Shown: piece after piece, positions 12,042 to 42,560 of the stretch
Numbering within the stretch: the first letter of the stretch is position 1
How the letters are laid out: each line of letters starts with the position of its first letter
NCBI GenBank assembly: GCA_045531405.1
Contig: JAZSDX010000053.1
Span: 13,582 to 77,581 of the forward strand
DNA: 64,000 nt
DNA from: Muribaculaceae bacterium
GTDB taxonomy: Bacteria; Bacteroidota; Bacteroidia; Bacteroidales; Muribaculaceae
Direction of reading: 5' to 3'
The notes under the pieces: generated by a model
The model's input: the letters and a program-made list of their open reading frames with translations, nothing else
Told to the model about the DNA's origin: nothing
Databases searched by the model: none
Position numbers and translations under genes: made by a program

Positions 12042-12079
12042 AAAGTGCGACACTCACAACCGAGTGCCGCACTTTTTTT
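12042..12079 (+). terminator. Intrinsic terminator of the ilv operon
   Basis: Hairpin AAGTGCGACACTC..GAGTGCCGCACTT followed by a T9 run (12071-12079). Confidence 0.8.
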
Positions 12080-12099
12080 TGTAACAAAACACAAAATTT

Positions 12100-12132
12100 A
12101 TTTGGTTAATTAATATATAACCTATAACTTTG
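12100..12132 (+). promoter_or_regulatory. Candidate promoter of the B12 locus (-33 TTTG at 12100-12103, -7 TAACTTTG at 12125-12132)
   Basis: Consensus match. The predicted transcription start falls at the first nucleotides of the riboswitch P1 stem. Confidence 0.45.
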
Positions 12133-12135
12133 CCG

Positions 12136-12318
12136 ATGTAATGGTGTGGATACCCAACCGGGTTACTCTACTTAATAGGGAATCAGGTGTAAATCCTGGA
12201 CAGTCCCCGCTGCTGTGAGTTTCATTATCACTCACCGACATTCACAACCTGCCACTGAGGCGAAAGGCCTTGGGAAGGCGTCGGGATGAGGAAACGAGTC
12301 AGAAGACCTGCCACTACA
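12136..12318 (+). promoter_or_regulatory. Cobalamin (AdoCbl-type) riboswitch aptamer
   Basis: Conserved core AATAGGGAATCAGGTGTAAATCCTGGACAGTCCCCGCTGCTGT. B12 box CCTGCCACTG...GGGAAGGCG. P1 stem ATGTAATGG (12136-12144) pairs with CCACTACAT (12310-12318). Downstream, ATGTAGT (12364-12370) can compete for the P1 3' strand. A T-rich tract follows GTCTTC at about 12379-12390. Confidence 0.92.
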
Positions 12319-12499
12319 TTTATTTCAATAGCTTACGAGGTATGAGCTTTGAAAAGTTAAGACATGTAGTTAGCACTCGTCTTCTTTTTTCTTTGTTTCT
12401 GCCACCCTATACGAGATAGGAGTGCGTTTACATTTCAGGCTTGACAAGGTGTCGCCTCGAAGCTATTTTGATTAACAACTTAAATTATTAGTTATCAAA

Positions 12500-14509
12500 A
12501 TGGTAAGACGCATCTTAACAAGCTCGTTTTTTTATTTATTGCTGACTACACATTTCGCGTCAGCAACCACTCTCAGCGACGAGGGACACTCTACTCTTGA
12601 CACTACATTTCTCAAAGAGGTTGAAATCACAGCTCAATCCTACAAAGAAGTTATACCGGCACAAACATTAGGAGGAAAAGAATTAGAGGCATTGCGTTCA
12701 CACAGTGTAGCCGATGCTTTAAGGTATTTTTCGGGAGTACAATTAAAAGACTATGGTGGTGTGGGTGGTATTAAAACGGTCAATATCCGTTCGATGGGAA
12801 CAAACCACATGGGGGTTTATTATAATGGCATCGAATTGGGAAATGCTCAAAACGGACAAGTCGATTTAGGGAAATATTCATTGGAAAACATTGAAACCGT
12901 TTCACTCTATAACGGACAAAAAAGTGAAATTTTTCAGTCGGCACGCGAATTTGGTTCTGCCGGGTCAATATACCTCAACACCCGATTTCCTAAATTCAAA
13001 GAAGGAGAATCATGCCATTTGCGAGTGGGATTGCGAGCCGGCTCATTTGACCTCTTCAACCCATCTCTGACATTTGAGTACAAACTCAGCAAAACTATCA
13101 GCATGAGTTTCAATACCGAGTGGATAAGCTCATCGGGAAAATACAAATTCCGTTATCGACGCGTTACTCCTTCGGGCGAACTCGCCTACGACACAACTGC
13201 CATTCGCGAAAATGGCGATATTGATGCTGTTCGTCTTGAAGGTGGAGTGTATGGATTCCTTCCTAAAGGTCGATGGAAAGTTTATCTATACCATTACAAT
13301 TCAGAACGAGGAGTGCCTGGTGCCATTGTTAATAACGTGTGGCGACGTGGCGAAAGACTATGGGATCGAAACTCGTTTGCACAGGGAATGTTTGAACATC
13401 GATTCTCTTCAAAATTCAGCACAAAGGTAAACGCCAAATATGCCTTTGACTACACACGATATGTAAACAATGACGACAAACTCATTCATGTCGATAACAT
13501 CTACAAGCAAAGAGAGGTATATCTATCATGGGCAAACAAATATAGTGCGTTGCCTAATTGGGATTTGTCTATGGCATACGACTTTCAATGGAATGAATTA
13601 TCGGAATATATGGACGTTGACCGCTCAACTCATTGGGCATCATTGGCTACTGCCCTATCATTATGGGATTGCCTAAAGTTGCAAGCATCGGGTTTAATGA
13701 CATACGTAAATGAAGAACAACGAGAACGCAACTCAGCTCCCGACAAAGTTAAATTCACCCCAGGTGTATTTGCATCATATAAACCATTTAAAAAGCCTAA
13801 TTTAGTATTACGTGCTTTTTATAAACAAAGCTATCGCATGCCCACATTCAACGACTTGTATTACACCGATATGGGCAACGCATATCTCAAACCCGAAACA
13901 GCTATACAATATAATGTTGGCTTATTATATGATATAGTTCAAGAAAAAAGTTGGTTCAAATATTTTAAGGTTGGAACAGATGTTTACTATAATGATGTAA
14001 AAGATAAAATTGTAGCATATCCCAAAGGACAACAATTTCGATGGACAATGCTCAATCTCGGCAAAGTAGAAATCAAAGGTATCGATGCCCAATTAGGTGC
14101 GACATTCGGACTTCCATACGACATTGATTTCACTACCAAGGTCCAATACACCTACCAAGAAGCTATCGACGTAACAAATCCTGCCGATAATTACTATCGT
14201 CATCAGATTCCTTATATTCCATGGCATAGTGGTTCGGCTATTGTCATGCTCGATTGGAAAGGTTGGCATTTCAATTATAGCTTCATCTACACCGGCGAAA
14301 GATATAACCAACAAGAGAATATCCGCTATAACTACACTCAACCATGGTACACAAGCGACATTTCTCTGATGAAATCGTTTAAGATCAACAAGGTAAATCT
14401 AAAAGCCACAGCCGAGGTTAATAATCTTCTCTCACAAGATTATGATGTGATTCTTAACTACCCTATGCCCAAACGCAATTATCGATTTGGCATTGTCGTT
14501 GAACTTTAA
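12500..14509 (+). CDS. btuB: TonB-dependent receptor, vitamin B12 transporter BtuB-like
   Basis: 669 aa. Signal peptide. Plug motifs (ADALRYFSGVQLKDYGGVGGIKTVNIRSMG). Beta-barrel length. Directly controlled by the cobalamin riboswitch. Confidence 0.88.
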   Translation: MVRRILTSSFFYLLLTTHFASATTLSDEGHSTLDTTFLKEVEITAQSYKEVIPAQTLGGKELEALRSHSVADALRYFSGVQLKDYGGVGGIKTVNIRSMGTNHMGVYYNGIELGNAQNGQVDLGKYSLENIETVSLYNGQKSEIFQSAREFGSAGSIYLNTRFPKFKEGESCHLRVGLRAGSFDLFNPSLTFEYKLSKTISMSFNTEWISSSGKYKFRYRRVTPSGELAYDTTAIRENGDIDAVRLEGGVYGFLPKGRWKVYLYHYNSERGVPGAIVNNVWRRGERLWDRNSFAQGMFEHRFSSKFSTKVNAKYAFDYTRYVNNDDKLIHVDNIYKQREVYLSWANKYSALPNWDLSMAYDFQWNELSEYMDVDRSTHWASLATALSLWDCLKLQASGLMTYVNEEQRERNSAPDKVKFTPGVFASYKPFKKPNLVLRAFYKQSYRMPTFNDLYYTDMGNAYLKPETAIQYNVGLLYDIVQEKSWFKYFKVGTDVYYNDVKDKIVAYPKGQQFRWTMLNLGKVEIKGIDAQLGATFGLPYDIDFTTKVQYTYQEAIDVTNPADNYYRHQIPYIPWHSGSAIVMLDWKGWHFNYSFIYTGERYNQQENIRYNYTQPWYTSDISLMKSFKINKVNLKATAEVNNLLSQDYDVILNYPMPKRNYRFGIVVEL

Positions 14510-14520
14510 TTTTTCGATAT

Positions 14521-15678
14521 ATGAACAAACTTATTTTCTCTATACTCTTTTCATTAATGCTTTGTTGTGCCACAAGTTGTCGTGAAGACGAGATTGTGGT
14601 ACCAACAGAGTACGACATTTTGCCATTTGAGCCCAACTCCGACGTGAATCCAATAGGCTTGTACTTGCTCAACGAGGGCAATATGGGTAGCAACAAGGCC
14701 TCTATCGACTTTGTGGATTTCAAGAACGCCTATTATGTGCGCAATATGTATGCCGAGCGTAATCCCACTATTATCAAAGAACTGGGTGATGTGGGTAACG
14801 ATATTCAGATATATGGCAATAAGATATATGCCGTAATAAACTGTTCTCACAAGGTAGAAGTGATGGATGCGCATTCATTGGTGCGCATTGGGCAAATTGA
14901 CATCCCCAACTGCCGCTACATTAAATTTGACAAAGGGAATGCCTACGTTTCGGCTTATGTGGGACCGGTAGCTATTGACCCTGATGCACAACTTGGGGCT
15001 GTGTATCGAGTAGATACCGCCTCTCTTGCCATCACCGGGAAATGCACCGTTGGCTACCAACCCGACGAGTTAGAAATCCTCGGGGAATATATATATGTAG
15101 CAAATTCAGGTGGTTATAGAGTACCAAAATATGACTATACGATATCGGTTGTAGAGAAATTTGGCATGACCCAAGTTGAAAAAATACCGGTTGGTATAAA
15201 CCTTCATCGCACAGAAGCTGACAAATACGGAAAACTTTGGGTAACATCTCGTGGCAACTACGGCTCAATTCGTTCCAAAATGTTTGTACTTGAAAAAGAG
15301 AGCAAATTCTCACGAAAGATGGTTGTCACCGACACTCTCGACATTCCTTGTTCGGAGATGCACATTCAAGGGGATTCACTCTATTTCTACAGCGTAGAAT
15401 GGAGCAATCAAGAAGAAAAAAACCACATTGCCTACGGCATCATCGATGTGCGAACAAAAGAACTTGTTACCGACCATTTCATTACCGACGGCACTGAAAA
15501 GGACATTGAAATCCCTTACGGTATAAACGTACACCCTATTACCGGCGATATATATGTTACTGATGCCAAAAACTATGTTTCGAGTGGAGCTTTGCATTGT
15601 TACAGCCGTGAAGGTAAAAAGAAATGGAGTGTACGCACCGGCGACATTCCGGCACACATGGTATTCCTATATAAATAA
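14521..15678 (+). CDS. Surface lipoprotein, YncE-like beta-propeller (occupies the BtuG position)
   Basis: 385 aa. Lipoprotein signal (LMLCCATSC). Repeated-blade pattern (LYLLNEGNMGSN, YGNKIYAVIN, GEYIYVANSG, GDIYVTDAKNY). Lies 11 nt after btuB. Homology to BtuG itself was not verifiable by eye. Confidence 0.6.
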   Translation: MNKLIFSILFSLMLCCATSCREDEIVVPTEYDILPFEPNSDVNPIGLYLLNEGNMGSNKASIDFVDFKNAYYVRNMYAERNPTIIKELGDVGNDIQIYGNKIYAVINCSHKVEVMDAHSLVRIGQIDIPNCRYIKFDKGNAYVSAYVGPVAIDPDAQLGAVYRVDTASLAITGKCTVGYQPDELEILGEYIYVANSGGYRVPKYDYTISVVEKFGMTQVEKIPVGINLHRTEADKYGKLWVTSRGNYGSIRSKMFVLEKESKFSRKMVVTDTLDIPCSEMHIQGDSLYFYSVEWSNQEEKNHIAYGIIDVRTKELVTDHFITDGTEKDIEIPYGINVHPITGDIYVTDAKNYVSSGALHCYSREGKKKWSVRTGDIPAHMVFLYK

Positions 15679-15687
15679 TAACTCACA

Positions 15688-16917
15688 ATGAAATACTTAT
15701 ATCAAATATTAATCGCTACCATTTTATCAGCCACCATCTCAGCTTGCAAACCTGAGATTGAGATGGTTAGCCTTGGCATTGATGAAGAATATGCCATTGA
15801 ACGAATGAGAATACTGCACCTTCATCCCGAATTCCCCGGTGAGTCATACATTTGGTCGATGAAAGATGTAAATGGGAATGACTCTGTAATATCAAATGAA
15901 CGCGACTTGTATTTCGTAAAAAAAGATGCAGGCACATACAATGTAAAACTCAACATTGTTGATGACTCCGACCCGGTAGAGCATAACATAAAAATCGTGG
16001 TATGGAACGAGCAAGTTGCTTATAGTCGATACATCACCGAAGTGTATGAGTATCGTCCTGCACCAGGTCAATTTATCAACGAGTTACCCAAGTACAAAGA
16101 TGGGGATACAGAAGAATCAATGATAAAAAAGGTTTTGGAATGTATCTCGGATAAGAATGATGTCCTCATCTCACTCGGAGGATATGGTGGATATGTAACA
16201 TTTGGATTTGACCATGCTGTAGTGAACGTTCCAAACGAAATGGATTTTAAGATCTTAGGAAATTCTTTCTATGCCGAAGCAAATCCCAACCCCAATGCAC
16301 CGGAATCGGGTGGCAGTGCCGAGCCGGGCATCGTGATGGTATCTATCGACAAAAATGGCAATGGCAAACCCGATGATGAATGGTATGAACTTGCCGGAAG
16401 CGAATACTATAAACCTGAAACATTGCACAACTATTCAGTGACATATTTTCGCACCCCAAGCGACCACGTTGCAACACCCATTCCTCAGTCGCCAATTACC
16501 GACAACACATATATTCAATGGACTGCAAACGATGGCACAACAGGCTATATCGAAAAAAACTCATATCACCGTCAAGATTATTTCCCTAAATGGGTTACGG
16601 TCGATGAAATCACTTTTAGCGGAACACGATTGGCTTCAAATGGTATCGATGAGAGTGGCATAGCTAGCTATTTCGTGTTGTATGCCTATGATTGGGGATA
16701 TGCCGACAATCACCCCAATGAGGTTGGCGACAAAAGCTGCTTCAATATCGATTGGGCTGTAGATAAAAACGGCAACCATGTGCAGCTCGATGGTGTGGAT
16801 TTCATTCGTGTATTCACCGGTGTAAATCAATCATGTGGCTGGCTTGGCGAAACCTCTACTGAGATTTGTCGTGCCGAAGATTTGCATATTGACAACTCTT
16901 TTCTACCTAATCCCTAA
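15688..16917 (+). CDS. Lipoprotein: PKD/Ig-like domain plus a module of about 290 aa of unknown function (module X)
   Basis: 409 aa. Lipobox (TISAC). Ig-like segment (SYIWSMKDVNGND..GTYNVKLNIVDD). Module X starts at YRPAPGQF (16051) and is paralogous to 19494-20378 in the 1437-aa gene. Confidence 0.7.
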   Translation: MKYLYQILIATILSATISACKPEIEMVSLGIDEEYAIERMRILHLHPEFPGESYIWSMKDVNGNDSVISNERDLYFVKKDAGTYNVKLNIVDDSDPVEHNIKIVVWNEQVAYSRYITEVYEYRPAPGQFINELPKYKDGDTEESMIKKVLECISDKNDVLISLGGYGGYVTFGFDHAVVNVPNEMDFKILGNSFYAEANPNPNAPESGGSAEPGIVMVSIDKNGNGKPDDEWYELAGSEYYKPETLHNYSVTYFRTPSDHVATPIPQSPITDNTYIQWTANDGTTGYIEKNSYHRQDYFPKWVTVDEITFSGTRLASNGIDESGIASYFVLYAYDWGYADNHPNEVGDKSCFNIDWAVDKNGNHVQLDGVDFIRVFTGVNQSCGWLGETSTEICRAEDLHIDNSFLPNP

Positions 16918-16945
16918 CCGATTATAATAAATTAAACTACATAAT

Positions 16946-18778
16946 ATGAAAAAAATTTTATCACTAATTGCAAGTGCTTTGATTGTAGCAAGTTCTATGC
17001 AATCTATTGCACAAAATTACTACAATGGAGCGTATGTCCTCAACGAGGATTGGTATGGGCATAACAATAGTACTCTAAACTTCTGGAATCCGGAGGCAGA
17101 GACTATCGACTACCTCATTATGCAGATGGCCAACAACTATAAGTATTCTCTTGGCTGCACATCTCAGTATGGTCAACTTTATGGAGATTTTCTCGTAATT
17201 ACAGGCAAACAAGATAAAGACCCCGGTGAAGGTGGCGATATGCTATCGGGACGCGTTGCCATTTTGAATAAAAACACGCTCAAACCCATAGGTGATGAGG
17301 TACACCCTCTCATTTCGGTTAACGAGAATGGCAAATCCGATGCCGATGGCCGAGGTGTTTGTTTCGTTGACAATAACAAGTTTTATGTGGGCACATCAAA
17401 TGGCATATATGTATTTAAATGGAATGAACAAGGAAAAATCTTTGTGTGGGACTCAGAGAAGCCCATTCCAGGCACCGAGAACAAACTTATTACTGGCGAC
17501 GAAATAAGTAATGCCGATGGTCAAGGGCCTCTTTACCACAACCAAATAGGCATGATGCTTCGCACTCAAGATTATGTTTTCGCAATAAAACAAGACTTGG
17601 GGGTACTCGTCATCAACCCCCAAACCGATGAAATAATAAAGATTATTGAAGGTTGTTTCTCTACCATGGTTCAAAGCAAAGATGGGAATATATGGGTAGG
17701 TGTAAACTATCAAGAAGAGGGTAATGAAAGCAACCTTAACTATCCATACGGGTGGAATGGAAATGCTTGGAACGGCTCACAACTCATGTGTATCAACCAA
17801 TATAGCCTTGAAACAAAAAAGGTTCGTTTAGACACCGGTGGCGTGCCTCAATCGTGGTATGCGTGGACTGCAGGCTCTTTGACTGCGAGCAACACCGAAA
17901 ATACTCTATACTTTGTATATACCGACCCAAGCCTTGGACAAATCAACTGGTTTAGAAACTGCGTATTATATCGTTTCAATATTGATGCTATCGATTGGGA
18001 TAATATCGACCTCTCAAACCCCGACGAAGCGTATGCCGAAGGTGCTTGCGAAGAGATATATGATAGTTCTTTTGATGGATTGTATTTCTATGGCGGTGCT
18101 ATTCAATGCAATCCTAAAGATGGGAATATATATGCATCACTTTATGTGGGCGAAAACATTGCAACACAAGAATGGATCTACGCAATTATATCTCCCGAAG
18201 GGGAAATGATTCAATATCAAGAGCCTATTAAACGTTACTGGTATCCTGCAATGTTTATCTTCCCCGACAATAAAGCTCCTATTGTTGAGAAATTTGAAGA
18301 TGTAACTATCGATGATAAAGATCCTATTGAAGTCACTCTATCTGACAAAGTAACCGACGAAGATTCAAATAATGCCGCTATTATAAAAAGCATAAGCAAT
18401 ATCAAAGATGAATCAATCGTAAAAGCCGAAATTATTAATGGCAATTTAGTACTCACCCCATTGAAGAAAGGTAATACAGTGATTGAAATAGCCTTTAATT
18501 CCAATGGAAAAGTAGTAACTGAAAGTGTAAAAATATCAGTTACTGCCGACATCAGCTCTGTTCAATTAAACACCATTGAACAAGCAAACGTTTTTGCCGT
18601 TTCAGGAAATATTATGATTACCGGCATTGACACACCCCAACAAGTAGATGTTTTCAATGCTCAAGGCTCTCTTGTAAAATCGGTCATTATTAACAATGGC
18701 GACATGATTTCAGGACTGGTTAAAGGCAATCTCTATATCGTAAAAATTTCAAATCAATCACATAAAATTGTTATATAA
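16946..18778 (+). CDS. T9SS-secreted surface protein: propeller-like region, Ig-like domain and T9SS C-terminal sorting domain
   Basis: 610 aa. Signal peptide SIA|QN. YVLNEDWYGHNNSTLNF resembles the LNEGNMGSN motif of the upstream propeller. Ig-like segment (PIEVTLSDKVTDEDSNNA..). The C-terminal 75 aa (18551-18775) has the T9SS CTD pattern (VDVFNAQGSLVKSV..GLVKGNLYIVKISNQSHKIVI). Confidence 0.75.
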   Translation: MKKILSLIASALIVASSMQSIAQNYYNGAYVLNEDWYGHNNSTLNFWNPEAETIDYLIMQMANNYKYSLGCTSQYGQLYGDFLVITGKQDKDPGEGGDMLSGRVAILNKNTLKPIGDEVHPLISVNENGKSDADGRGVCFVDNNKFYVGTSNGIYVFKWNEQGKIFVWDSEKPIPGTENKLITGDEISNADGQGPLYHNQIGMMLRTQDYVFAIKQDLGVLVINPQTDEIIKIIEGCFSTMVQSKDGNIWVGVNYQEEGNESNLNYPYGWNGNAWNGSQLMCINQYSLETKKVRLDTGGVPQSWYAWTAGSLTASNTENTLYFVYTDPSLGQINWFRNCVLYRFNIDAIDWDNIDLSNPDEAYAEGACEEIYDSSFDGLYFYGGAIQCNPKDGNIYASLYVGENIATQEWIYAIISPEGEMIQYQEPIKRYWYPAMFIFPDNKAPIVEKFEDVTIDDKDPIEVTLSDKVTDEDSNNAAIIKSISNIKDESIVKAEIINGNLVLTPLKKGNTVIEIAFNSNGKVVTESVKISVTADISSVQLNTIEQANVFAVSGNIMITGIDTPQQVDVFNAQGSLVKSVIINNGDMISGLVKGNLYIVKISNQSHKIVI

Positions 18779-18779
18779 A

Positions 18780-21700
18780 ATGAAAAAGGTTAGTCTTATC
18801 ATGCTGTTTTTGTCGTTAGCAATGGCATTCACAGCTCAAGCCGGGACTCAATTTGTCCCCAAAGAGTATTCCTATGAGGCCGTTGGCTCAGATGGGAGTA
18901 GTTCTTTTTATGTTTATTTTTACGACCTATTTGAGTATCCCGACGACATTTCAACATCAACCGACATTTCACAAAAGGAGGGAATCACAATCACTACATC
19001 ATCGGGCGATAACACTATCATAAAATTAAACAGCATAGGCGCCCACATGAGCAAAACGAGAATGCAATTAACTCGTATGGGACAAGTAAAAGGTGAAACC
19101 ACATTCTCAGTATCGATTACTTATAATGGCGAAACCGTCACAAATAGCTTCCCTGTAAAAGTGCATGGGTTAGAAACATCAATGATTAAATCATATATCA
19201 ACCCCGATGAAATAGCTCCTCAAGTTTTTGATGTTATCGGCAACACAAGTTTCTATAAATCATCGGAAAAAACGACTTGTTCTTTAACTATCGACAACGC
19301 CGATGAATTAAAATATGGTACTATCGAATTAGTTGACGGAGAAAACGGATATAAGGTTATTCAATATACTCCTAACGGCACTCCTCAACAAATTGTATCA
19401 GATGCAATCAAATATACAATTACTTTATCTGACGGAACCGAATCCTCTTCAAATAAAATTATCACATATACTACTCGCAACTGCTATGCTACAAAAATAT
19501 TAGAATATCAACCTGCCGCAGGACAATTTCGTAGTGAAATTGCATGGGACAACCCTATCGAATTTTTTGAAAATAACGAACGTGGTGTGAGCCTTGGTGC
19601 ATTAGGTGGATATATCGTATTTGGTTTCGACCAACCTATCTACAACAATCCTCAAAATCCCTACGGCGTGGATTTCACTGTTGAAGGAAATTCATTTGTA
19701 GCTGCCGAAAAAGGAGTGTGGACCGAACCCGGAGCCGTGCAAGTTATGGAAGACAAAAACGGCAACGGGCTTCCCGATGACGGCGAATGGTATGAGCTTG
19801 CAGGTAGCGACTATTGGTTAAGCACCACCAAACATAATGTAGAACTAACATACTACAACCCTCACTATAATGATCGTTACACTGTGCCCTGGGCTATGAA
19901 ATGGGAGGAAAATGGCGAAATTAAGCATGAATATGGTGCAGTAGTAACAAACAACTTCCACAAGCACTCATTCTATCCCGATTATTTCTACAATCAAGAC
20001 AATCCCGATGAGTCTAAACGCTGGTTTTCTCCAAGTGTTTCCCGTGATTCAATCACATTTACCGGTGTCACCAACATTCGTGGTTGCATCGATATGCGTT
20101 CGCCAAGTTATATCGAGTTCTACGCTTATTCAGGATTTGGATATTGCGACAATAAGGGGTTTGTGAAAGAAGATTCGCGTATTGCTCAAAATCCTTATGG
20201 TCGTCCTTATCTTGGCGAAACAGCCGGAGATGGCATGGATATAAGTTGGGCAGTTGACAAAGATGGGAATTATGTAGAACTTGAAAAGATTGATTTCGTG
20301 AAAGTATATACCGCCGGGCAAGTTATTGCCGGTTGGCTTGGCGAATGGTCAACCGAAGTGTTAAACTGTGCCATTACTCTACCCGATCCCGAATATGTGC
20401 CACAAGATTATTACTACAATTATGTAGGTATAACTCAATTGCAAGTACCTAAAGGACACACATGCCAATATGAAGGATTTTTATTCAAGAATGGTCGTCC
20501 GGTAGAAAATGTGACACAACATTGGCGGATTACAATGGACAAAGAGGGTCTTGTAACCGATGGAGTTGATGCCATTGCCGAAATAGACAATACCGGTTTA
20601 CTCACTGCTAATGGCTATGGAACAGTGTGGGTACACTTCTCGGCTATGGACGGTATTCCTGAAGAAGCATTTGAAGTGTCGGTGTGCAATCTCTCAAGCG
20701 TAGTTATCAATCTTGAAGGGAACCAAGGCATTGAAAGTGAAGAATTAACATGTGTCGTTGGAGAACGTATTTACATCAACGTTGAAAGTGAAGATGACAA
20801 CACCCAAAATGTGAACGAGACAAAATCTAATCGCTTTATCTACGATAATTACACTTGGTTAAACAGCAATCCCGATGTAGGGACAATAGATAATGGGAAC
20901 TTTATCGCATTGAAACCTGGAACTACCACTCTCACTGCTGTGTCGGGAATTAACCCATCATTAAACGACAAAATTGCAATAACAGTTATTGATATTCCCG
21001 AAATTACAATAACTCCTATACAAATTGCATCAACTAGCCACTCTGGAGAATTACTCAACAGCGACATCTTCTCAACAGGCACTGGAGCTACTGTATATAT
21101 GGACAAAGTAACTGCAAAGAAAGGATTGGCAAATATTTCACTTTACAACAACCGCCTTTCATATCAATTTACCGAAGGTGAATATGTTACTGACATTCTC
21201 ATCTTTAAGGTGATTTGTTATGGTCAAGAAAAAACTATCGAAGTTCCTATCACTTATGGTCCTTACAACTTGGCTTCTCGCAAAAAAGTGTTGATGATTA
21301 ATAGCACTGATGAAAATGGCGTTGACTTAGGCATTGCCCAACTTCAAGGCATCGATGCAGAAACATTTGAGAACAAGACCTACGTTGAAGATCTTGCTTG
21401 CGGCTCTAATCTGAATCAAATCCCAACCGACAATATTCTTCCTGATGGTTCATACGCATACCTTACACAAGGCACAAACCTTTCTCGTTATGATGTGGAA
21501 TGGGGAAAAACTGTTGTAAGTGCAACATTAACCTCTACCGATAAGCATCAACTTGCTACTTACAAAGACAAAATTATTGTTAGCGACGGAGATTCTCTCA
21601 AAGCATTCTATCGCACCGACCTCGAAGCATTCAAATCAATCAAGCTAAATGGCACAATCAAACAAATGGTGATAAATGGAGATGTTGCCTATATTTTATG

Positions 21701-23093
21701 TGCAACTGACGCCAACGCCCGAATAAACAAGCTCAATCTTGCCACATGGACTTTGGCTGAAACCAATATAGATATCGACGGAGGAAATAAAGCCTCAGGA
21801 ATGTATTACCTTAACGACAAACTCTATATTGCTACCGGTGAAGTAAACGGAGAAGCAGCCTCAATGGTTGTGTTTAACCCAACTGACAACTCTAATACTA
21901 CAACATCGGCTACCATCGACGGAAGTATGCAAATTCCTCATGGTGTTTCGGTTCAAGCAGGCAATAACATTATGGTATCACGTGGTTGTGGATTTATCGC
22001 ATATAATCTTGAAACCGAAACATTCGCTGATGAAACCGTGATGATTCTCAACGACATATTTATCCCAACACTTGCCGTTTACGAACCCACCGACTCATCT
22101 GAATACTATTACGTGGCATATTCTCAAGGCATGGCTATGTTTGAATCATCTGATTTAACACAACCAAAGATGATTTTCAATGCAATTCCATCGGCAATAA
22201 GTATAATGGCTGCAACCGAACAAAATGAGGCTCCTACTACCAAGAAAGCTTATTCATACACATCGGGAGTATATGAACGTGCCACTTCGGTAAAAAAATG
22301 TACCGCAGCAAAACTAACTACACTCTTTGCCGACAACGAAGGCAACACTACCGACAACCTCACTATGTATATTCGTGAAGATGTAGATTGGTTAGATGTA
22401 ACATATTCATCAGGCAACATCACTCCTAATGTTAAATACACCGGCGATGTTGACAATTTAACCGACATTGTGTTCCCGGTTGAATGTATCGACAAGAATG
22501 GGGCATCAACAATGAGTACTGCCACAATCCGCATCACTCCTCGCATCTACAAACCAACGATTGACGAATCACAAGTAATAATCTATACCGATTCGGTACT
22601 CGTTGACACGCTTTCGGTTGGTAACATTTTCACTTACCCTAAATCAACAACTAACCTAACATTTGTAACTAATGTTTCAAACGTTAGCGACTACACTCTT
22701 ATCAACAGTGCTGAAATCGACCAAAACAATAATTTGGTTATTACTGCTATGGAAGGTGTAAAAGGGGAAGCTGCTGTTGAATTAACTCAAACCATTACTC
22801 ACAAAACTTATGGTTCAAAAACATTCACTGCGACAATTCCTGTTGCATTTGAAAGCAAAGTGCCATCGGGAATTGATTGTATATCTAACAACAATATAGA
22901 TATAAATTACGTCAATGGAGTATTGACTATTAACAACTGTAAAGGAGAAAGATGCTTAATTTATAATGTTGCCGGATCGCTTATTTATTCATGCGATATT
23001 AATAGTAACAACTTCTCTATTCTATTAAATCTCAACAATGACATATATATTGTAACGACTGACAATCAACGCATAAAAATTGCAGTGAAATAA
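18780..23093 (+). CDS. Giant T9SS-secreted multidomain surface protein (Ig-like, module X, Big_2-like repeats, propeller-like region, Ig-like, T9SS CTD)
   Basis: About 1437 aa from the ATG at 18780 (the ORF track begins at a TTG at 18768). Signal peptide MKKVSLIMLFLSLAMAFTAQA. Module X spans 19494-20378 (YQPAAGQF..GWLGEWSTEV). Big_2-like motifs (TANGYGTVWVHFSA, ALKPGTTTLTAVSG). Propeller-like repeats (YKDKIIVSDGDS, GDVAYILCA, NDKLYIATGE). CTD at 22866-23090 (CLIYNVAGSLIYS..NDIYIVTTDNQRIKIAVK). Confidence 0.8.
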   Translation: MKKVSLIMLFLSLAMAFTAQAGTQFVPKEYSYEAVGSDGSSSFYVYFYDLFEYPDDISTSTDISQKEGITITTSSGDNTIIKLNSIGAHMSKTRMQLTRMGQVKGETTFSVSITYNGETVTNSFPVKVHGLETSMIKSYINPDEIAPQVFDVIGNTSFYKSSEKTTCSLTIDNADELKYGTIELVDGENGYKVIQYTPNGTPQQIVSDAIKYTITLSDGTESSSNKIITYTTRNCYATKILEYQPAAGQFRSEIAWDNPIEFFENNERGVSLGALGGYIVFGFDQPIYNNPQNPYGVDFTVEGNSFVAAEKGVWTEPGAVQVMEDKNGNGLPDDGEWYELAGSDYWLSTTKHNVELTYYNPHYNDRYTVPWAMKWEENGEIKHEYGAVVTNNFHKHSFYPDYFYNQDNPDESKRWFSPSVSRDSITFTGVTNIRGCIDMRSPSYIEFYAYSGFGYCDNKGFVKEDSRIAQNPYGRPYLGETAGDGMDISWAVDKDGNYVELEKIDFVKVYTAGQVIAGWLGEWSTEVLNCAITLPDPEYVPQDYYYNYVGITQLQVPKGHTCQYEGFLFKNGRPVENVTQHWRITMDKEGLVTDGVDAIAEIDNTGLLTANGYGTVWVHFSAMDGIPEEAFEVSVCNLSSVVINLEGNQGIESEELTCVVGERIYINVESEDDNTQNVNETKSNRFIYDNYTWLNSNPDVGTIDNGNFIALKPGTTTLTAVSGINPSLNDKIAITVIDIPEITITPIQIASTSHSGELLNSDIFSTGTGATVYMDKVTAKKGLANISLYNNRLSYQFTEGEYVTDILIFKVICYGQEKTIEVPITYGPYNLASRKKVLMINSTDENGVDLGIAQLQGIDAETFENKTYVEDLACGSNLNQIPTDNILPDGSYAYLTQGTNLSRYDVEWGKTVVSATLTSTDKHQLATYKDKIIVSDGDSLKAFYRTDLEAFKSIKLNGTIKQMVINGDVAYILCATDANARINKLNLATWTLAETNIDIDGGNKASGMYYLNDKLYIATGEVNGEAASMVVFNPTDNSNTTTSATIDGSMQIPHGVSVQAGNNIMVSRGCGFIAYNLETETFADETVMILNDIFIPTLAVYEPTDSSEYYYVAYSQGMAMFESSDLTQPKMIFNAIPSAISIMAATEQNEAPTTKKAYSYTSGVYERATSVKKCTAAKLTTLFADNEGNTTDNLTMYIREDVDWLDVTYSSGNITPNVKYTGDVDNLTDIVFPVECIDKNGASTMSTATIRITPRIYKPTIDESQVIIYTDSVLVDTLSVGNIFTYPKSTTNLTFVTNVSNVSDYTLINSAEIDQNNNLVITAMEGVKGEAAVELTQTITHKTYGSKTFTATIPVAFESKVPSGIDCISNNNIDINYVNGVLTINNCKGERCLIYNVAGSLIYSCDINSNNFSILLNLNNDIYIVTTDNQRIKIAVK

Positions 23094-23121
23094 TTATCTT
23101 GTTACATGATAATTCTAAACA

Positions 23122-23153
23122 CAAAAATGGGCTGTGCAAAGACAGCCCATTTT
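23122..23153. terminator. Bidirectional intrinsic terminator between convergent operons
   Basis: Hairpin ATGGGCTGT-gcaaag-ACAGCCCAT (23127-23150), flanked by an A5 run upstream and a T-run downstream. Confidence 0.75.
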
Positions 23154-23172: not shown

Positions 23173-25788
23173 TTATTTAATAAACTTGATTGTTTTTACA
23201 TTTCCACCTGTTGTAACTTTGGCGATATATACACCATTGCTCAAATCAGCAACAGAAATAATTGCCATTGAAGATGATGGGGTTGCATTCAATACTATCG
23301 CACCTGAAGCATTGTAAATTTCAACTGATTCGATTGTATTAGCTGCACTAATATTTAATACTTCGCCATTACATGAAGTCTTGATTTCTGCTACTTCTTC
23401 AATTGCTTCAACACCTACGGCTGGAAGTTCGATGTCGGTAACTTTTGCAGTTTGAGTTGCATTATCCCATTGGCTAAACTCAAGATTATTGAAGTTTACT
23501 GCTCCATTCCATGCTTGATATGGAGTTTCTTCGTCGTCAATATCGGTCCATTCATGACGCATAAAGAAGCTATCAAAACGCCATGTTGAGATTGTTGTTG
23601 CTTCTCCTGTGAAATGTGTAAATGGCTCGTTCTTAATATCCCATTTAACAAGATTCCAACCACGGAAATCAATAGTTGTTTGAGGATCTTGATACTTAAG
23701 TTCTGAATTATTGATACGCAACATTGCCGAAACTGCATTATTTGAGCCATCGCCATATAACCAGAATGTCAAAATGCCATCTGATATGTTACGGTTAGCA
23801 TTAACTCCTGATTGAGTTGGAGTATATTCTCGGATTTGCCAAAGTTCATTTGCAAAATATTCATCAAATGAATAAGTCATTAATGCAGAACCAGCAGTAT
23901 TTTTGTTAGGAGCAAGAGTGCTTGATGTGGTTGAGTTGCCTTCGTCGGTAAGACCTGAAGTAGAACCTGAGCCATTTGGAGCCCAGAAACCATCAGCACT
24001 TGTTAATGGGAATAATACTGTTGAAGATGTTTTAGTGCGATATTCTGAAAGGAAACGGAAATGGAATTCTTCAGTTTCATTGCCTGAAACGTCGGGTAAT
24101 CCGGCTTTTACTGACACTAAGAAACACTTGTCGGCAGGAATAGTATCATTTGTGTAGAAATGAAGAACAGATTTTCCAAATACTACAGCATGTGTAGCTG
24201 TTCCTTCATAAGTTTTTCCATCGCTATCTTTTACAGTGATGAAATCAGAATGTTTATCGGCATTCCACACAATTTCTTCATCATATTCGATGCGGATAGG
24301 AGGCATAATTGCAAATTCTGCTGTTTGGTCAGCAGCAGGATAAGTTGTCACAATTTGTGGAGCAGTAACATCAGGTTCTGCAATAGTGATAGAAAGCACA
24401 TAGTTACCACCTTCGACACCGTCACCATCACCATCAAAGAATTGGTTGGTTTGTGAATTCTTTGCAATAGAACCATCAATAGTGATATCATAAGTCCACA
24501 TTGGATCAAGTTTTGTGATATCAATATTCAAGGTATAATCGTTTACCCATTCAAAGGCAATCTCACCACCATTGTTGATTGTAATAGCCTTTTCAACTGA
24601 TTCTCTATCCATATTACGAGAGAATGTAATTGTAACAGGATAAATAGGGGAAACATTTGTTGGGTCAACAACCGATGTTGCATCAACTTTAGCAGGAGAA
24701 GTACTTGTTAATTCTACGTGTTGAACTGTAACATAATCATTTGTTGCACCTTGTGCACCATCTTTAATAGTCACTTGAACTGTTTTAGATTCAAATCCGT
24801 CAAGTTCAAATGTCACATCATAGGTTTTTCCTACTTCTAATCCTTCAAAGAAATAGAATCCGTTGTGAATCAAGTTTTCATTTTTGGTATAAATGTTAAA
24901 TACTGATTCCCAAGTATCGGTTGTATAAGTTTTACCATCAACAGTAACTTTTACACCATTAATAGGTGTGTTATTTTCAGAATTGCTTATAATACCGGCG
25001 AGGAATGTTTGAGAAGGAACATTCAAACCACGATATTTAAGGATTGATTGAAAACCTGCAAGAGCCTCAAGACGTTTATATTCTTTGTTGATGTTGAGTT
25101 GTTGTTGTGCAGCAATAGTATGATATGCACCTTCACTCAACAAAGAAGCCATATTTGAACGGCGGTTTACCGATAAATAAGGATATTGATATGCATGAGT
25201 AGTTTCTCCACGAAGATAGAAACAACGGTCATACCAGTTGCCACGAGTTCCGGTACAAGCAAAGTTCATCATCATGTCTGTGAGGTTAGGACAAAGTATG
25301 TCACCAAATGCTTTACCCCCATTAGGAGTTTTTTCTACTTCTACACCATCTTTCATCCAACCACCAAATAGAGTAACAGTTGTGTTGTTTTCTGCAGACG
25401 CGTCAGAGTGTATTGAGTAATAGAAATCGGCGCCCCAAGCATTTGCCATATCAGAGCGTTCTTCGAGTCCAACCTCTGTAACTTCATCTTCACGGCAAAG
25501 CATGAGATTATCTGCCGGCATATCGGTATATGTAAGCAAATATTCTTTCATTGTTTGTGCAATTGCAAATACTTTTTCAGCTTCAGAATATCCCCAAAGT
25601 CCTCTATTTTCCTTCATAGAGTGACCGGGATCAAGGAATAATTTAAAATCACCCCAGCCTGTTATTTCTTTTTCGACAATCGAATCAGTTGCTATAGTAT
25701 CTGTATTTTCTTGAGCAAAAGAAGGCATTGTCATTAAACACATTGCAGATATTACTGCACTTTTCTTAAATATATTCATCTTTTTCAT
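23173..25788 (-). CDS. T9SS-secreted N-acetylmuramoyl-L-alanine amidase (Amidase_3) family multidomain protein
   Basis: 871 aa. Signal peptide SFA|QE. Amidase_3 pattern (LFLDPGHS..SEAEKV..LEERSDMANAWGADFYYSIHSDA). CarbopepD_reg-like segment (GIISNSENNTPINGVKVTVDGKTY). Ig-like (SbsA/Big_5-type) repeats. T9SS CTD (VEIYNASGAIVLN..LSNGVYIAKVTTGGNVKTIKFIK). Confidence 0.75.
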   Translation of the reverse strand: MKKMNIFKKSAVISAMCLMTMPSFAQENTDTIATDSIVEKEITGWGDFKLFLDPGHSMKENRGLWGYSEAEKVFAIAQTMKEYLLTYTDMPADNLMLCREDEVTEVGLEERSDMANAWGADFYYSIHSDASAENNTTVTLFGGWMKDGVEVEKTPNGGKAFGDILCPNLTDMMMNFACTGTRGNWYDRCFYLRGETTHAYQYPYLSVNRRSNMASLLSEGAYHTIAAQQQLNINKEYKRLEALAGFQSILKYRGLNVPSQTFLAGIISNSENNTPINGVKVTVDGKTYTTDTWESVFNIYTKNENLIHNGFYFFEGLEVGKTYDVTFELDGFESKTVQVTIKDGAQGATNDYVTVQHVELTSTSPAKVDATSVVDPTNVSPIYPVTITFSRNMDRESVEKAITINNGGEIAFEWVNDYTLNIDITKLDPMWTYDITIDGSIAKNSQTNQFFDGDGDGVEGGNYVLSITIAEPDVTAPQIVTTYPAADQTAEFAIMPPIRIEYDEEIVWNADKHSDFITVKDSDGKTYEGTATHAVVFGKSVLHFYTNDTIPADKCFLVSVKAGLPDVSGNETEEFHFRFLSEYRTKTSSTVLFPLTSADGFWAPNGSGSTSGLTDEGNSTTSSTLAPNKNTAGSALMTYSFDEYFANELWQIREYTPTQSGVNANRNISDGILTFWLYGDGSNNAVSAMLRINNSELKYQDPQTTIDFRGWNLVKWDIKNEPFTHFTGEATTISTWRFDSFFMRHEWTDIDDEETPYQAWNGAVNFNNLEFSQWDNATQTAKVTDIELPAVGVEAIEEVAEIKTSCNGEVLNISAANTIESVEIYNASGAIVLNATPSSSMAIISVADLSNGVYIAKVTTGGNVKTIKFIK

Positions 25789-25796: not shown

Positions 25797-26669
25797 TTAG
25801 TATTTGAGATTAATAACATAAATTGATGCATCTATTGCATTTTCAAATGCAACTTTCTTGCCATCAGGTGATACCGAAGGTGTCAATGGAATTAAATCGG
25901 TGTTGCCTGTAAGAAGATATTTCACACCATTGTTAATATTAATTGAATATATATCTGACGATGTAAAATTAGAGCCATCATCGGTTACTAATGTAAAAAT
26001 TAGCGACTGATTATCAGCTAACCATTGAGGATTAGACCCTTTACCTATGCTTTTGAGATTTCCTCCATTATTATCGCAAATCCACATTCCATGTCCCGGA
26101 ATTTGGAACGCAACTTTTGTTCCATCGGGCGACAATGCCGGATTTATAATCATTTTTCCTGAAAACTCTTTCAACGAAACAATTTTTGATGTAGCTTTTG
26201 CCGGTTCTGCAACCATCAACTCATATACTCCGTCTGCTTCAAGTGTAGCAGTTGCTTTGATAGATTTCCATGTTGGAGTACCATTAATGTTTCTGCTTTT
26301 CCCTACTATGATATCAGCCTTACCGGTTGCGATGTCCCATTTCTTAACTTCATGGAGAACGCAATTATTTTCAATAACATTGGTACGGCCCAATATTTGC
26401 GTACCATCGGCACTCCATTTCATCTTGTAACCGGCGCCCGATTCAGATGTAATAGATTTTAAATTACTACCATCGGCATTTGCGACCAAAATACCGGTGT
26501 AATTGTCGGTTGTTACAGCGATTTGAGACCCATCGGGAGACCACACAGGAGCCATCAAACCTACTGAATACTCAATGAGCTTTTGAGGCTCACTTGCCGA
26601 GCGAGGTTGTGCGAAAACGCATGCACAGCCTAAGCAGAGTGAAATTGCTAAAACAAAATTTCGTTTCAT
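25797..26669 (-). CDS. Secreted TolB-like (PD40 repeat) beta-propeller protein
   Basis: 290 aa. Signal peptide VFA|QP. Repeated SPDG motifs (WSPDGSQIAV, SADGTQILG, SPDGTKVAFQ, SPDGKKVAFE). Lies 8 nt upstream of the amidase gene. Confidence 0.75.
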   Translation of the reverse strand: MKRNFVLAISLCLGCACVFAQPRSASEPQKLIEYSVGLMAPVWSPDGSQIAVTTDNYTGILVANADGSNLKSITSESGAGYKMKWSADGTQILGRTNVIENNCVLHEVKKWDIATGKADIIVGKSRNINGTPTWKSIKATATLEADGVYELMVAEPAKATSKIVSLKEFSGKMIINPALSPDGTKVAFQIPGHGMWICDNNGGNLKSIGKGSNPQWLADNQSLIFTLVTDDGSNFTSSDIYSININNGVKYLLTGNTDLIPLTPSVSPDGKKVAFENAIDASIYVINLKY

Positions 26670-29598: not shown

Positions 29599-30251
29599 GA
29601 CTTCCCTCCAAATGGATTTATGCCAAAACGGCGACGGATATATTCGGCAATGATTGCTACTGCATCTTCCATTTTGAGCAACGATGTATTGATGGTGAGG
29701 TCATAACTCGCAGCATCACCCCACTTCTTGTCGGTGTAGAAATTATAATAATTAGCACGTAACTTATTAGTTTTTTGAGCAATTGTACGTGCTTGTTCGG
29801 GAGTTGGTCGATCTCCTCGACGCATTATGCGAGCAATGCAATCGTCAATTGATGAATGTACAAAGATATTTACACAACGAGGGTGTTCTCGCAACACATA
29901 GTCGGCACTTCGACCAACGATAACACACGATTTATCGTTTGCTATGCGACGTATAAATTCACTTTGTGCATTATAAATTCCATCACTGGCAATTGTTGAT
30001 GAACAAGAATAACATGATGCCGGATTATAACCTGTGCCAACAGCAAACATCCCACTCAAAAACGATGGTACACGTTCATCGCTTCGCTCAAAAATTTCAG
30101 GACACATCCCAGCTTGTTTAGCAGCTTCTTGCAATAGTTCTTTATCGTAATATTCTATCCCAAAAGTTGATGCCAACAATTTTCCCAATTCACGTCCACC
30201 ACTGCCAAATTGGCGACCAATCGTGATTACGAAATTTTTATCCTCGTTCAT
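29595..30251 (-). CDS. Cytidylate kinase-like family protein (P-loop)
   Basis: Start taken at the ATG at 30251 (MNEDKNFVITIGRQFGSGGRELGK). The ORF-track start at 30275 is a TTG. The sequence is typical of the Bacteroidales cytidylate-kinase-like family. Confidence 0.75.
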   Translation of the reverse strand: MNEDKNFVITIGRQFGSGGRELGKLLASTFGIEYYDKELLQEAAKQAGMCPEIFERSDERVPSFLSGMFAVGTGYNPASCYSCSSTIASDGIYNAQSEFIRRIANDKSCVIVGRSADYVLREHPRCVNIFVHSSIDDCIARIMRRGDRPTPEQARTIAQKTNKLRANYYNFYTDKKWGDAASYDLTINTSLLKMEDAVAIIAEYIRRRFGINPFGGKS

Positions 30252-30339
30252 AATAATAAATTTTAGGAGTGTCAAAGTTAATATTTTTCAATCTATATTC
30301 AAATTTTTGCTGCTACTTTTATATAACAAATAAAAACTC

Positions 30340-30385
30340 AAAAAAGACAGAAAAACAACAACGCCACCGAAAGAACGATGGCGTT
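30340..30385 (-). terminator. Intrinsic terminator after the POT transporter gene
   Basis: Stem AACGCCA (30360-30366) pairs with TGGCGTT (30379-30385). On the minus strand it is followed by GTTGTTTTTCTGTCTTTTTT. Confidence 0.6.
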
Positions 30386-30411
30386 GCGTTTATTTTAGAA
30401 TGAGATTTTGC

Positions 30412-31905: not shown

Positions 31906-31954
31906 AAATGTAATTGTTATTTAGTTAATAATTAATTGAATTTTGCGAGTTTGA

Positions 31955-32389
31955 TTAAGCTCCTGTTTCCATTTTGGTTTTGAAAGCGAGGGCATATACC
32001 TTCATTTGTTTCACCATTGCCACAAGACCATTACTACGAGTTGGAGAGAGATGCTCTGAAAGACCTATTTTATCAATAAAATAAAGGTCGGCATCAAGAA
32101 TTTCTTGTGGAGTGTGATTTGACAACACTTTTATCAACAACGAGATAATTCCTTTAACGATAATAGCATCGCTATCTGCTGTGTAGATGATTTTGCCCTC
32201 GTCGTTAAGTTCGGCATTGAGCCACACGCGACTTTGACACCCCTCGATGATATATTGAGGTGTTTTATACTTTTCGTCTATCGCAGGAAGTGCATTGCCC
32301 AAATCAATGATATAGGCATAACGGTCCATCCAATCTTCTATATCAACAAATTCGTCGATTATTTCGTCTTGTATTTGATTTATAGTCAT
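31955..32389 (-). CDS. sufE: SufE-family sulfur acceptor protein
   Basis: 144 aa. SufE pattern (IEGCQSRVWL with the conserved Cys, and LSPTRSNGL). Confidence 0.85.
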   Translation of the reverse strand: MTINQIQDEIIDEFVDIEDWMDRYAYIIDLGNALPAIDEKYKTPQYIIEGCQSRVWLNAELNDEGKIIYTADSDAIIVKGIISLLIKVLSNHTPQEILDADLYFIDKIGLSEHLSPTRSNGLVAMVKQMKVYALAFKTKMETGA

Positions 32390-32399
32390 ATTTCCTTTA

Positions 32400-33380: not shown

Positions 33381-33512
33381 TATTCAAGTCGTTTAACTCA
33401 CAAAGTTACAAAAAACTGCGCTATACTCCAATTTTACTCCACAGATTTAATTTTTCATTGCACAATTAAATCTTTAATTGTTTTTATTATTGAAGTATTC
33501 AAAAAGAATTTG

Positions 33513-33520
33513 TAATTTTG
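33513..33520 (+). promoter_or_regulatory. Candidate -7 box TAATTTTG upstream of the ATPase-DUF4435/menA pair
   Basis: TAnnTTTG match 28 nt upstream of the ATG at 33548. Confidence 0.3.
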
Positions 33521-33547
33521 AGAGTATTACTAAAACGTCGAGAAGTT

Positions 33548-36035: not shown

Positions 36036-36067
36036 AGTCGCAAAAGTCTCTAAAGACATTAAACAAT

Positions 36068-37177: not shown

Positions 37178-37212
37178 AACATCTAATTTTGCCACAAAGA
37201 TAACACAATGAC

Positions 37213-37253
37213 GCGAAAAAACAAGCTAATCTCGTCAAAATATGACGAGATTA
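37213..37253 (-). terminator. Intrinsic terminator of the small OMP gene
   Basis: Perfect 10-bp stem TAATCTCGTC/GACGAGATTA (37227-37253). On the minus strand it is followed by GCTTGTTTTTTCG. Confidence 0.7.
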
Positions 37254-37299
37254 ACACAATTATTCACTGCAATAGAGGATTAAAGCAATCTATATATTC

Positions 37300-37833: not shown

Positions 37834-37894
37834 AATAACAATCATTTATTACTATGGCTCTCAAATAGCATTATTATATTCCAACAAAGAAAAA

Positions 37895-42453: not shown

Positions 42454-42480
42454 ATGCTTAGTTCACTTTATTTCAAAGTA

Positions 42481-42488: not shown

Positions 42489-42560
42489 GTAAATCAGCAC
42501 GGATTAACAGCCCTTTAGGTTTTATTTTAACCACTAAAATTAGTTTTTTTAATACAATTT

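Follow-up and report, generated by a model that had tools for sequence, protein, structure and literature searches.

A probable cobalamin riboswitch operon of a Muribaculaceae bacterium that encodes BtuB, BtuG and BtuH homologs and two putative B12-binding proteins with T9SS-like tails

The DNA analyzed here (the window) is a stretch of 64,000 nucleotides (nt) from a Muribaculaceae bacterium (GenBank assembly GCA_045531405.1, contig JAZSDX010000053.1, positions 13,582 to 77,581 of the forward strand). A 100% match was obtained to contig CAJGDJ010000007.1, entered as uncultured Muribaculaceae bacterium isolate MAG53. The window carries a cobalamin riboswitch followed by five genes, and this locus is probably a riboswitch-controlled corrinoid uptake operon in which the products of the last two genes are Sec-exported, B12-binding proteins of the T9SS (type IX secretion system) type, instead of being lipid-anchored. 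On the evidence of homology, the core of the locus (genes 1–3) corresponds to cobamide operon 1 of Bacteroides thetaiotaomicron. The five open reading frames (ORFs), all on the + strand, are at 12500–14509, 14521–15678, 15688–16917, 16946–18778, and 18780–23093, and encode proteins of 669, 385, 409, 610, and 1437 amino acids (aa), respectively; the last length is counted from an ATG, as the ORF lister opens the frame of gene 5 four codons earlier, at a TTG.

The riboswitch was detected by an Rfam scan, in which the Cobalamin model RF00174 matched the positions 12125–12329 (+) over its full length (1–189) with 110.6 bits (E = 7.6e-27), the gathering score being 31.5 bits. This covariance-model search confirms the aptamer that a first-pass annotation of the same DNA had placed at 12136–12318, and extends it slightly. 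No other Rfam match was present across the 64 kb. The upstream boundary of the unit is the terminator of ilvC (12042–12083, +), a hairpin found by scanning and followed by a run of eight T that was recognized by reading. Reading together with a motif scan also identified a Bacteroidetes-type promoter (12101–12132, +), where a consensus promoter had been announced ahead of the aptamer. It consists of TTTG at −33 (12101–12104) and TAACTTTG at −7 (12125–12132), with a spacing of 20 nt, and we infer the promoter role of this pair from the known Bacteroides promoter consensus. A scan for sigma-70 promoters was dropped as uninformative (36 sites versus 39.5 expected), and the Bacteroidetes −33/−7 motifs were used instead. 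Between the aptamer and gene 1 lies a leader (12330–12499, +) that may contain the expression platform: by RNA folding, a long hairpin (12301–12386) is followed by a U-rich run (12387–12400), and a second hairpin (12465–12502) covers the ATG (z = −2.9 and −2.7).

The products of the first three genes resemble a well-studied import apparatus. Gene 1 encodes a predicted BtuB-type TonB-dependent corrinoid transporter, with the Pfam domains Plug and TonB_dep_Rec_b-barrel, whose residues 47–666 match B. thetaiotaomicron BtuB1 (PDB 8blw_A) at E = 5.9e-125, in line with its initial description as a BtuB-like receptor. It scored under the equivalog cut-offs of NCBIfam (TIGR01779, 93 versus 599.7 bits; NF007926, 47.6 versus 836 bits), with both models still the top-ranked families; we assume that these models were built around the proteobacterial BtuB. 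Starting 11 nt past btuB, gene 2 encodes a BtuG-type propeller (Pfam DUF5074), for which 8ptf, 8ptd, and 8blw_B, all BtuG propellers, were retrieved with E values of about 2e-36; BtuG propellers are seven-bladed according to the literature. Its lipobox, read by eye as CCATS|C-R-E-D-E, has the cysteine at position 20 followed by the acidic export signal REDE. These two features sustain the proposal of a surface lipoprotein propeller in the position of BtuG, and, as for BtuG, the protein may form a complex with BtuB and bind B12. The product of gene 3 has a lipoprotein-type N terminus (ISA|CKPE), as the first-pass annotation had recognized, and it can further be assigned to BtuH: 8blw_B was matched over its BtuH-type domain (residues 330–663) at E = 2.3e-84, and BtuH2 (7biz_A) at E = 2.4e-49. 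All 12 residues listed for the ligand and metal sites of BtuH (PMC13616437) are kept, namely Q333, F334, N399, F401, E406, Y475, H476, Y510, D522, W577, S582, and E584. In this comparison, an offset of 100 between the numbering of the 7biz chain and that of the 2026 review was applied.

The product of gene 4 is composed of a signal peptidase I (SPI) signal, a BtuK-type propeller (residues 27–440, nt 17024–18265), an immunoglobulin-like (Ig-like) domain, and a T9SS-like tail (about residues 535–610, nt 18548–18775). The propeller matches Pfam DUF5074 at E = 1.5e-86, and the profile of its family matches nearly the whole chain of 9S6C, which is BtuK1 with cyanocobalamin, at E = 2.5e-31, compared with about 1e-8 for the BtuG family. 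In 9S6C, the loop that binds cyanocobalamin contains E23, W25, and H28. At this position gene 4 reads N-E-D-W-Y-G-H, so that the E-x-W-x-x-H pattern is kept; in the alignment of the family the loop is conserved as NE[DG][WF][YF]G[HT], and E34, T72, K88, and Q89 are invariant. We infer from this that gene 4 encodes a B12-binding propeller of the BtuK1 type.

Gene 5 encodes a giant protein in which an SPI signal and an N-terminal region are followed, in this order, by a BtuH domain, spacers of the Ig-like/Big_2 type, a BtuG-like propeller, further Ig-like domains, and a T9SS-like tail (about residues 1360–1437, nt 22857–23090). The BtuH-type B12 domain (residues 233–529, nt 19476–20366) was recognized through the family profile, with E = 5.7e-68 for 8blw_B and 4.1e-45 for 7biz_A. 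It retains 11 of the 12 ligand and metal-site residues, the one change being Y475 to F; across the 34 orthologs, most of these positions do not vary. The propeller (about residues 834–1144, nt 21279–22211) was identified by AlphaFold2 and Foldseek. Neither BLASTP of gene 5 with genes 2 and 4 nor hhalign of its family profile with that of gene 4 showed propeller similarity in the middle of gene 5; all that was found in common was the C-terminal region with the Ig-like domain and the tail. The AlphaFold2 model of residues 760–1165 has an Ig-like domain and then a propeller (predicted local distance difference test score, pLDDT, 81.6; predicted template modeling score, pTM, 0.74). The top 14 matches of this model in the PDB by Foldseek were all BtuG1, BtuG2, BtuG3, 3dsm, or BtuK2 (E = 1e-11 to 2e-9), with generic propellers next, and the template modeling (TM) scores against BtuG chains, normalized to the target, were about 0.7. 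From sequence and model together, the long Ig-like chain of gene 5 is predicted to bear both a BtuH domain and a propeller like that of BtuG. Because its signal peptide is free of cysteine (AQA|GTQ), and so is no BtuH-style lipoprotein signal, the protein is predicted to work like BtuH and yet not to be a BtuH lipoprotein. Taken with the BtuK1 relationship of gene 4, the homology of genes 3 and 5 to a crystallized BtuH domain, with the contact residues kept, revises the earlier opinion that B12 binding by these proteins could be argued from context only. Ahead of the BtuH domain, residues 24–232 (window 18849–19475) form a conserved segment that begins with Q-F-V-P-K-x-Y-S and in which F25, F51, and P54 are invariant in the 34 orthologs; it gave no match to a family or a solved structure.

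The N termini of both distal proteins are without cysteine (SIA|QNY in gene 4), as expected for the SPI signal peptides that had been assigned to them, and in both cases the matches to sorting models end at the protein C terminus. The combination of an SPI signal with this extreme C-terminal position fits T9SS type A cargo. The tails themselves score under every curated cut-off: 16.2 (gene 4) and 18.1 bits (gene 5) with TIGR04183 (cut-off 23), and 14.1 and 15.6 bits with PF18962 (cut-off 27), while DUF6383 (cut-off 23.7) and the T9SS type C model NF033708 (cut-off 40) did not match gene 4 and gave gene 5 21.9 and 18.6 bits, respectively. DUF6383 is a putative T9SS targeting domain in Porphyromonas gingivalis PG2216. 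When the last 85 or so residues were scanned alone, the only matches were to models of T9SS sorting or T9SS-associated domains, plus chance ones at E ≥ 0.05. The first-pass annotation had proposed sorting tails and had named a failure of the models for the C-terminal domain (CTD) of T9SS cargo as a result that would speak against them; since the window tails do fall below the cut-offs, the proposal stands on the orthologs, the profile matches, the predicted fold, and a CTD protein encoded next to the operon.

Among the orthologs, which were aligned over their full length up to the C-terminal end, TIGR04183 gave 43.2 (P0127), 43.9 (P0123), 53 (P0306), 46.9 (P0324), and 29 bits (P0309), all over its cut-off, and two scores over that of PF18962 were obtained (50.1 and 39.6 bits). 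For the gene-4 family, represented by 98 tails at 50% identity, 48 match PF18962 at E ≤ 1e-3 and eight match DUF6383. The last 176 columns of the two families align with each other with an hhalign probability of 98.7, and the gene-5 profile matches both the CTD-bearing C terminus of PET30 (7pzj, E = 3e-4) and the CTD of NucA in the translocon structure of Flavobacterium johnsoniae (8glk_D, E = 1.2e-3). In the AlphaFold2 model of the gene-4 tail, the core of which has pLDDT >90, the top PDB match is the CTD of RgpB, and those of RemA, NucA, and RemZ rank 2, 5, and 13, with root mean square deviations of 2.5–3.2 Å; for NucA and RemZ these are 2.5–2.6 Å, with target-normalized TM-scores of 0.67–0.69, in a search in which Foldseek E-values are weak and FN3 folds compete. 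The tails of both genes keep the blocks (I/V)(Y/F)(N/D)xxG and GxY(I/L)(V/L)K...K in register with canonical CTDs, and they are 83–93% identical in protein sequence across Muribaculaceae orthologs. Lastly, the convergent neighbor at 23173–25788 (−), of 871 aa, is composed of Amidase_3, Big_5, and a canonical type A CTD that passes both curated models (PF18962, 30.8 bits; TIGR04183, 44.9 bits), and therefore this genome makes canonical CTD proteins. Together, these sequence and model comparisons support the view that the tails of genes 4 and 5 are diverged T9SS type A CTDs.

The anatomy of the locus is that of a single transcription unit. The gaps between the genes, of 11, 9, 28, and 1 nt, are exactly those first reported, and no terminator-like site was found by the scan on the + strand between 12500 and 23124. 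A terminator-like hairpin with a 12-bp stem and A/T runs on either side, common to the operon and the convergent gene, is located at 23124–23153, only 3 nt longer than the earlier reading (23127–23153), which had likewise found no hairpin terminator within the five genes. All five genes are likely to be on one transcript, as judged from this layout. The earlier and firmer statement of a single B12-repressed transcript agrees with the anatomy; it has to be read with the observations that some relatives have a separate riboswitch for gene 5 and that the B. thetaiotaomicron operon has internal promoters. Genes for BtuFCD had been declared absent from the window, and indeed there were none among the 35 larger ORFs scanned.

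Conservation of the arrangement was assessed with one genome per GTDB species, and the counts that follow cover the best 79 loci of at least 567 stretches that encode relatives of gene 4. Gene 4 itself had no exact entry in the contig index. The cassette of genes 1-2-3-4 was found in 70 of the 79 loci, and in at least 62 of these 70 a riboswitch was located no more than 700 nt upstream of the gene for the transporter; the eight apparent exceptions were mostly contig ends or over-called ORF starts. A gene of the gene-5 type came next in 31 cassette loci. The median spacings across the 79 loci were 8, 6, 28, and 24.5 nt, and the distance between the gene-4 and gene-5 types was greater than 150 nt in 11 of 34 related loci. 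In one close relative within the Muribaculaceae, ilvC and an aminotransferase gene flank the same riboswitch and set of five genes. The order riboswitch, transporter, BtuG, BtuH-type protein, DUF5074 protein, and giant protein was also observed in Maribellus comscasis, Mariniphaga anaerophila, and a metagenomic Bacteroidales contig; in the first two, both distal proteins have canonical Por_Secre_tail matches, and in the third there is only a faint match, on the giant protein. The carriers include Muribaculaceae, Candidatus Aphodosoma, Paludibacteraceae, Coprobacter, Paraprevotella, Prevotella/Segatella, Tannerella, Parabacteroides, Odoribacter, Prolixibacteraceae, and Bacteroides nordii, and among those that can be cultured are B. 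nordii, Coprobacter secundus, Prevotella corporis, Segatella hominis, Maribellus, and Mariniphaga.

In two loci, a second Cobalamin riboswitch was detected by Rfam between the gene-4 and gene-5 types (L014, 11835–12104; L046, 12089–12320). Here the gene-5 type is set apart and yet has its own riboswitch, and therefore B12 control is kept either way; we regard this as the strongest contextual evidence for a role of gene 5 in B12 physiology. In two further loci (L074 and L078), too, a second riboswitch is present, just past the gene-4 homolog.

Other observations concern related loci and proteins. The locus of B. nordii JCM 12987 (L017, 5160–16010) has the riboswitch and all five genes, with 29 bits for the gene-5 ortholog by TIGR04183, and RefSeq names this ortholog a T9SS type A sorting domain protein. 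The earlier assertion that Bacteroides lacks a T9SS is accordingly too broad: either some Bacteroides have the system or a transferred cassette kept its CTD. The contig retrieved for the context of the B. nordii ortholog cluster was short and gave no information. The cassette of Maribellus comscasis (L004, CP046401) may be on a mobilizable element, as genes for MobC and a relaxase lie directly upstream of it (1–1000), and on the other strand of the same locus a further Cobalamin riboswitch (24476–24682, −) precedes the anaerobic ribonucleotide reductase gene nrdD. Domain shuffling was also observed, as in P0228 an N-terminal part similar to gene 5 is fused to a DUF5074 propeller similar to gene 4, and one protein of the gene-4 family ends with a B12-binding domain of the DUF4465 (BtuJ) type. 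In nine loci of the Prevotella/Segatella type (L055, L057, L058, L063, L067, L070, L071, L077, and L084), the gene-4 homolog has 1070–1210 aa, with a long N-terminal extension and a short variant tail (GINIIRMSDGT.KKV.VK), and no gene of the gene-5 type comes after it. In these lineages the two distal functions may have become combined in a single protein.

Among known systems, operon 1 of B. thetaiotaomicron (BT1486–BT1491), which encodes BtuK1, BtuK2, BtuH1, BtuB1, BtuGH, and BtuJ1, comes closest. It is under riboswitch control, as is predicted for the window operon, and both have a transporter of the BtuB1 type, propellers of the BtuG1 and BtuK types, and a BtuH domain; a protein that unites BtuG and BtuH is likewise found in operon 1. 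The gene order, however, is different; BtuG and BtuH, which are fused in B. thetaiotaomicron, are encoded by separate genes in the window, and the gene for BtuJ (DUF4465) is absent from the window operon. The accessory proteins of operon 1 are all lipoproteins, whereas the BtuK-type and BtuH/BtuG-type proteins of the window have SPI signals and T9SS-like tails. BtuK1 (BT1486, 9S6C), the closest solved relative of the gene-4 propeller, shares with it the E23-x-W25-x-x-H28 loop, T60, and K76, although E77 is Q in gene 4; it is a lipoprotein with an N-terminal PKD domain, while the product of gene 4 lacks such an N-terminal domain and comes with an SPI signal, a C-terminal Ig-like domain, and the CTD-like tail. 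In BtuH2 (BT1956, 7BIZ), a C-terminal B12 domain is held off the membrane by Ig/PKD-like domains, and the residues of its ligand and Na/Ca sites are those shared with genes 3 and 5 as counted above. BtuH2, however, is lipid-anchored and has 501 residues in the solved chain, whereas in gene 5 the domain is internal, is followed by a propeller and a CTD-like tail, and goes with no lipobox; the whole protein is about two to three times the length of any characterized Btu protein. As to export, genes 4 and 5 resemble T9SS type A cargo such as RgpB and HBP35 of P. gingivalis and RemA and NucA of F. johnsoniae in having a Sec signal and a C-terminal domain of about 75 aa, which in such cargo is a beta-sandwich and may be one here, but differ in that their tails fall short of the curated cut-offs and have no PNP motif. 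HBP35, which binds haemin, is a precedent for nutrient-binding T9SS cargo.

No mention of T9SS was found in the papers on BtuG, BtuH, BtuJ, BtuK, and DUF4465 or in the 2026 review, as would be expected from the initial judgment that a T9SS-delivered layer of corrinoid capture had not been characterized. A literature search for links of DUF5074, BtuG, or cobalamin/BtuB with T9SS returned nothing relevant, and none of the Btu or T9SS papers searched describes corrinoid-binding or riboswitch-controlled T9SS cargo. For T9SS in Muribaculaceae, the literature search found only one preprint, which predicts a T9SS-anchored thioredoxin and gives no proof of the machinery. Neither the binding modules nor the secretion system is new; what appears to be undescribed, yet widespread, is that the two are combined, together with the giant that has two modules and the riboswitch control of T9SS-type cargo.

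The following sequence of events would be compatible with these features. When intracellular corrinoid is low, the riboswitch would permit expression of the operon. BtuB and BtuG would be the import core, as in B. thetaiotaomicron, with gene 3 as a membrane-proximal BtuH, and genes 4 and 5 would be exported by the T9SS. In P. gingivalis, type A cargo of this system loses its CTD, is linked to anionic lipopolysaccharide (LPS) or released, and is enriched on vesicles. In the same manner, genes 4 and 5 would lose their tails and then be attached to the surface through anionic LPS or be released, possibly on vesicles. The Ig-like chain of gene 5 would hold its two binding modules far from the surface, and both proteins would capture corrinoids away from the membrane and pass them to BtuH, from there to BtuG, and finally to BtuB.

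For the group as a whole, we lean slightly toward the view that many Bacteroidota other than the gut Bacteroides without T9SS (Muribaculaceae, Prevotellaceae, Tannerellaceae, Paludibacteraceae, Prolixibacteraceae, and others) use riboswitch-controlled T9SS cargo in place of lipoproteins for an outer B12-capture layer, consisting of a BtuK-type propeller and a two-module giant that are fixed to surface polysaccharide or shed on vesicles. If so, these would be the first T9SS cargo known to be regulated by a riboswitch and the first role of T9SS in vitamin acquisition. Competition for corrinoids shapes gut communities, and the present model of capture by BtuJ, BtuK, BtuH, and BtuG comes wholly from the lipoproteins of one species that lacks T9SS. 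A second and widespread route of anchoring or release for the B12 relay would have consequences for the loading of vesicles, the reach from the surface, and the public sharing of B12.

Some of our results weigh against T9SS export of B12 binders from a single riboswitch-controlled transcript, and three other explanations were considered. The locus could be an ordinary Btu locus in which the tails of genes 4 and 5 have decayed or are unrelated Ig-like ends, the proteins being periplasmic or released by lysis or on vesicles. This would agree with tails that stay under all CTD cut-offs and are without the PNP motif of canonical type A CTDs; with fold matches that are weak (Foldseek E = 0.009–0.05 for gene 4), interspersed with FN3 domains, and include 4g5a, a DUF3244 protein of the T9SS-less B. 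thetaiotaomicron; and with the finding of no T9SS machinery genes among the 35 window ORFs scanned. Decay, however, is difficult to reconcile with the high identity of the tails among Muribaculaceae orthologs, with D and E motifs that line up with those of canonical CTDs, at the exact C terminus, with orthologs that exceed the cut-offs, and with the clear CTD on the neighboring gene of the same genome; moreover, the cell would gain little from B12-binding modules in a periplasmic location, upstream of BtuB. We consider this explanation unlikely. We give even less credit to the idea that genes 4 and 5 are off the riboswitch transcript and have internal, B12-independent promoters, so that only genes 1–3 are regulated. 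It draws on B. thetaiotaomicron operon 1, for which internal promoters, one of them stronger than the primary promoter, are reported (PMC12751083), on the wide spacing before the gene-5 type in those 11 related loci, and on three TAnnTTTG motifs within the window operon (14922, 15847, and 22136, +), which might provide extra starts for genes 4 and 5. None of the three is in a gene junction, though, and they are no more than chance, as about six are expected per strand over 10.6 kb (an estimate scaled from shuffles); in the window, gene 4 starts after a gap of 28 nt and gene 5 after one of 1 nt, the scan gave no terminator-like site there, and where the gene-5 type is set apart (L014 and L046) it has its own Cobalamin riboswitch.

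Genes 4 and 5 might also be adhesins, or binders of another ligand such as haem or glycans, with Btu-like folds and recruited beside btuB. Propellers and Ig-like arrays are generic surface modules, the Prolixibacteraceae orthologs have many FN3 domains, and BtuK2, although it is a close paralog of BtuK1, fails to bind B12, so that homology is no guarantee of binding. Against this stand the residues of the BtuH ligand and metal sites, conserved and largely invariant in the gene-5 orthologs, the BtuK1 loop residues kept in gene 4, and the riboswitch, which accompanies nearly every cassette and in two genomes the gene-5 type by itself. Because the B12-contact residues are conserved and the link to the riboswitch is near-universal, a haem or adhesin role for genes 4 and 5 was rejected, and we regard this whole explanation as very improbable. 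For the preferred reading, a riboswitch-controlled operon with T9SS-type B12 binders, three more points count on the negative side: the propeller of gene 5 has only 13–15% identity to BtuG, the hairpins of the leader are only a candidate expression platform, and btuFCD is missing from the ORFs scanned.

The genes beyond the operon were also inspected. A T9SS-exported peptidoglycan amidase, as the convergent neighbor would be, is unusual in itself. Beside it is a gene for a protein of 290 aa with PD40 repeats (25797–26669, −), and both genes are missing at the syntenic locus of a related Muribaculaceae metagenome-assembled genome (L001). L001 also lacks a block that the window has at about 29600–39700; the difference falls between the HD gene and lptD, and the block has the look of a variable island. 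It contains a cytidylate-kinase-like gene, a POT transporter, an M28 peptidase, DUF4435 with an AAA_21 ATPase, UbiA, Fic/DOC with DUF4172, a small outer-membrane protein barrel, and an ABC-F ATPase, of which the DUF4435/AAA and Fic genes look defense- or toxin-like. It is followed by a seemingly ordinary cluster for outer-membrane biogenesis (39745–49561, −), with LptD_2 (902 aa), an Omp85/TamA-like protein (765 aa), and TamB (1563 aa).

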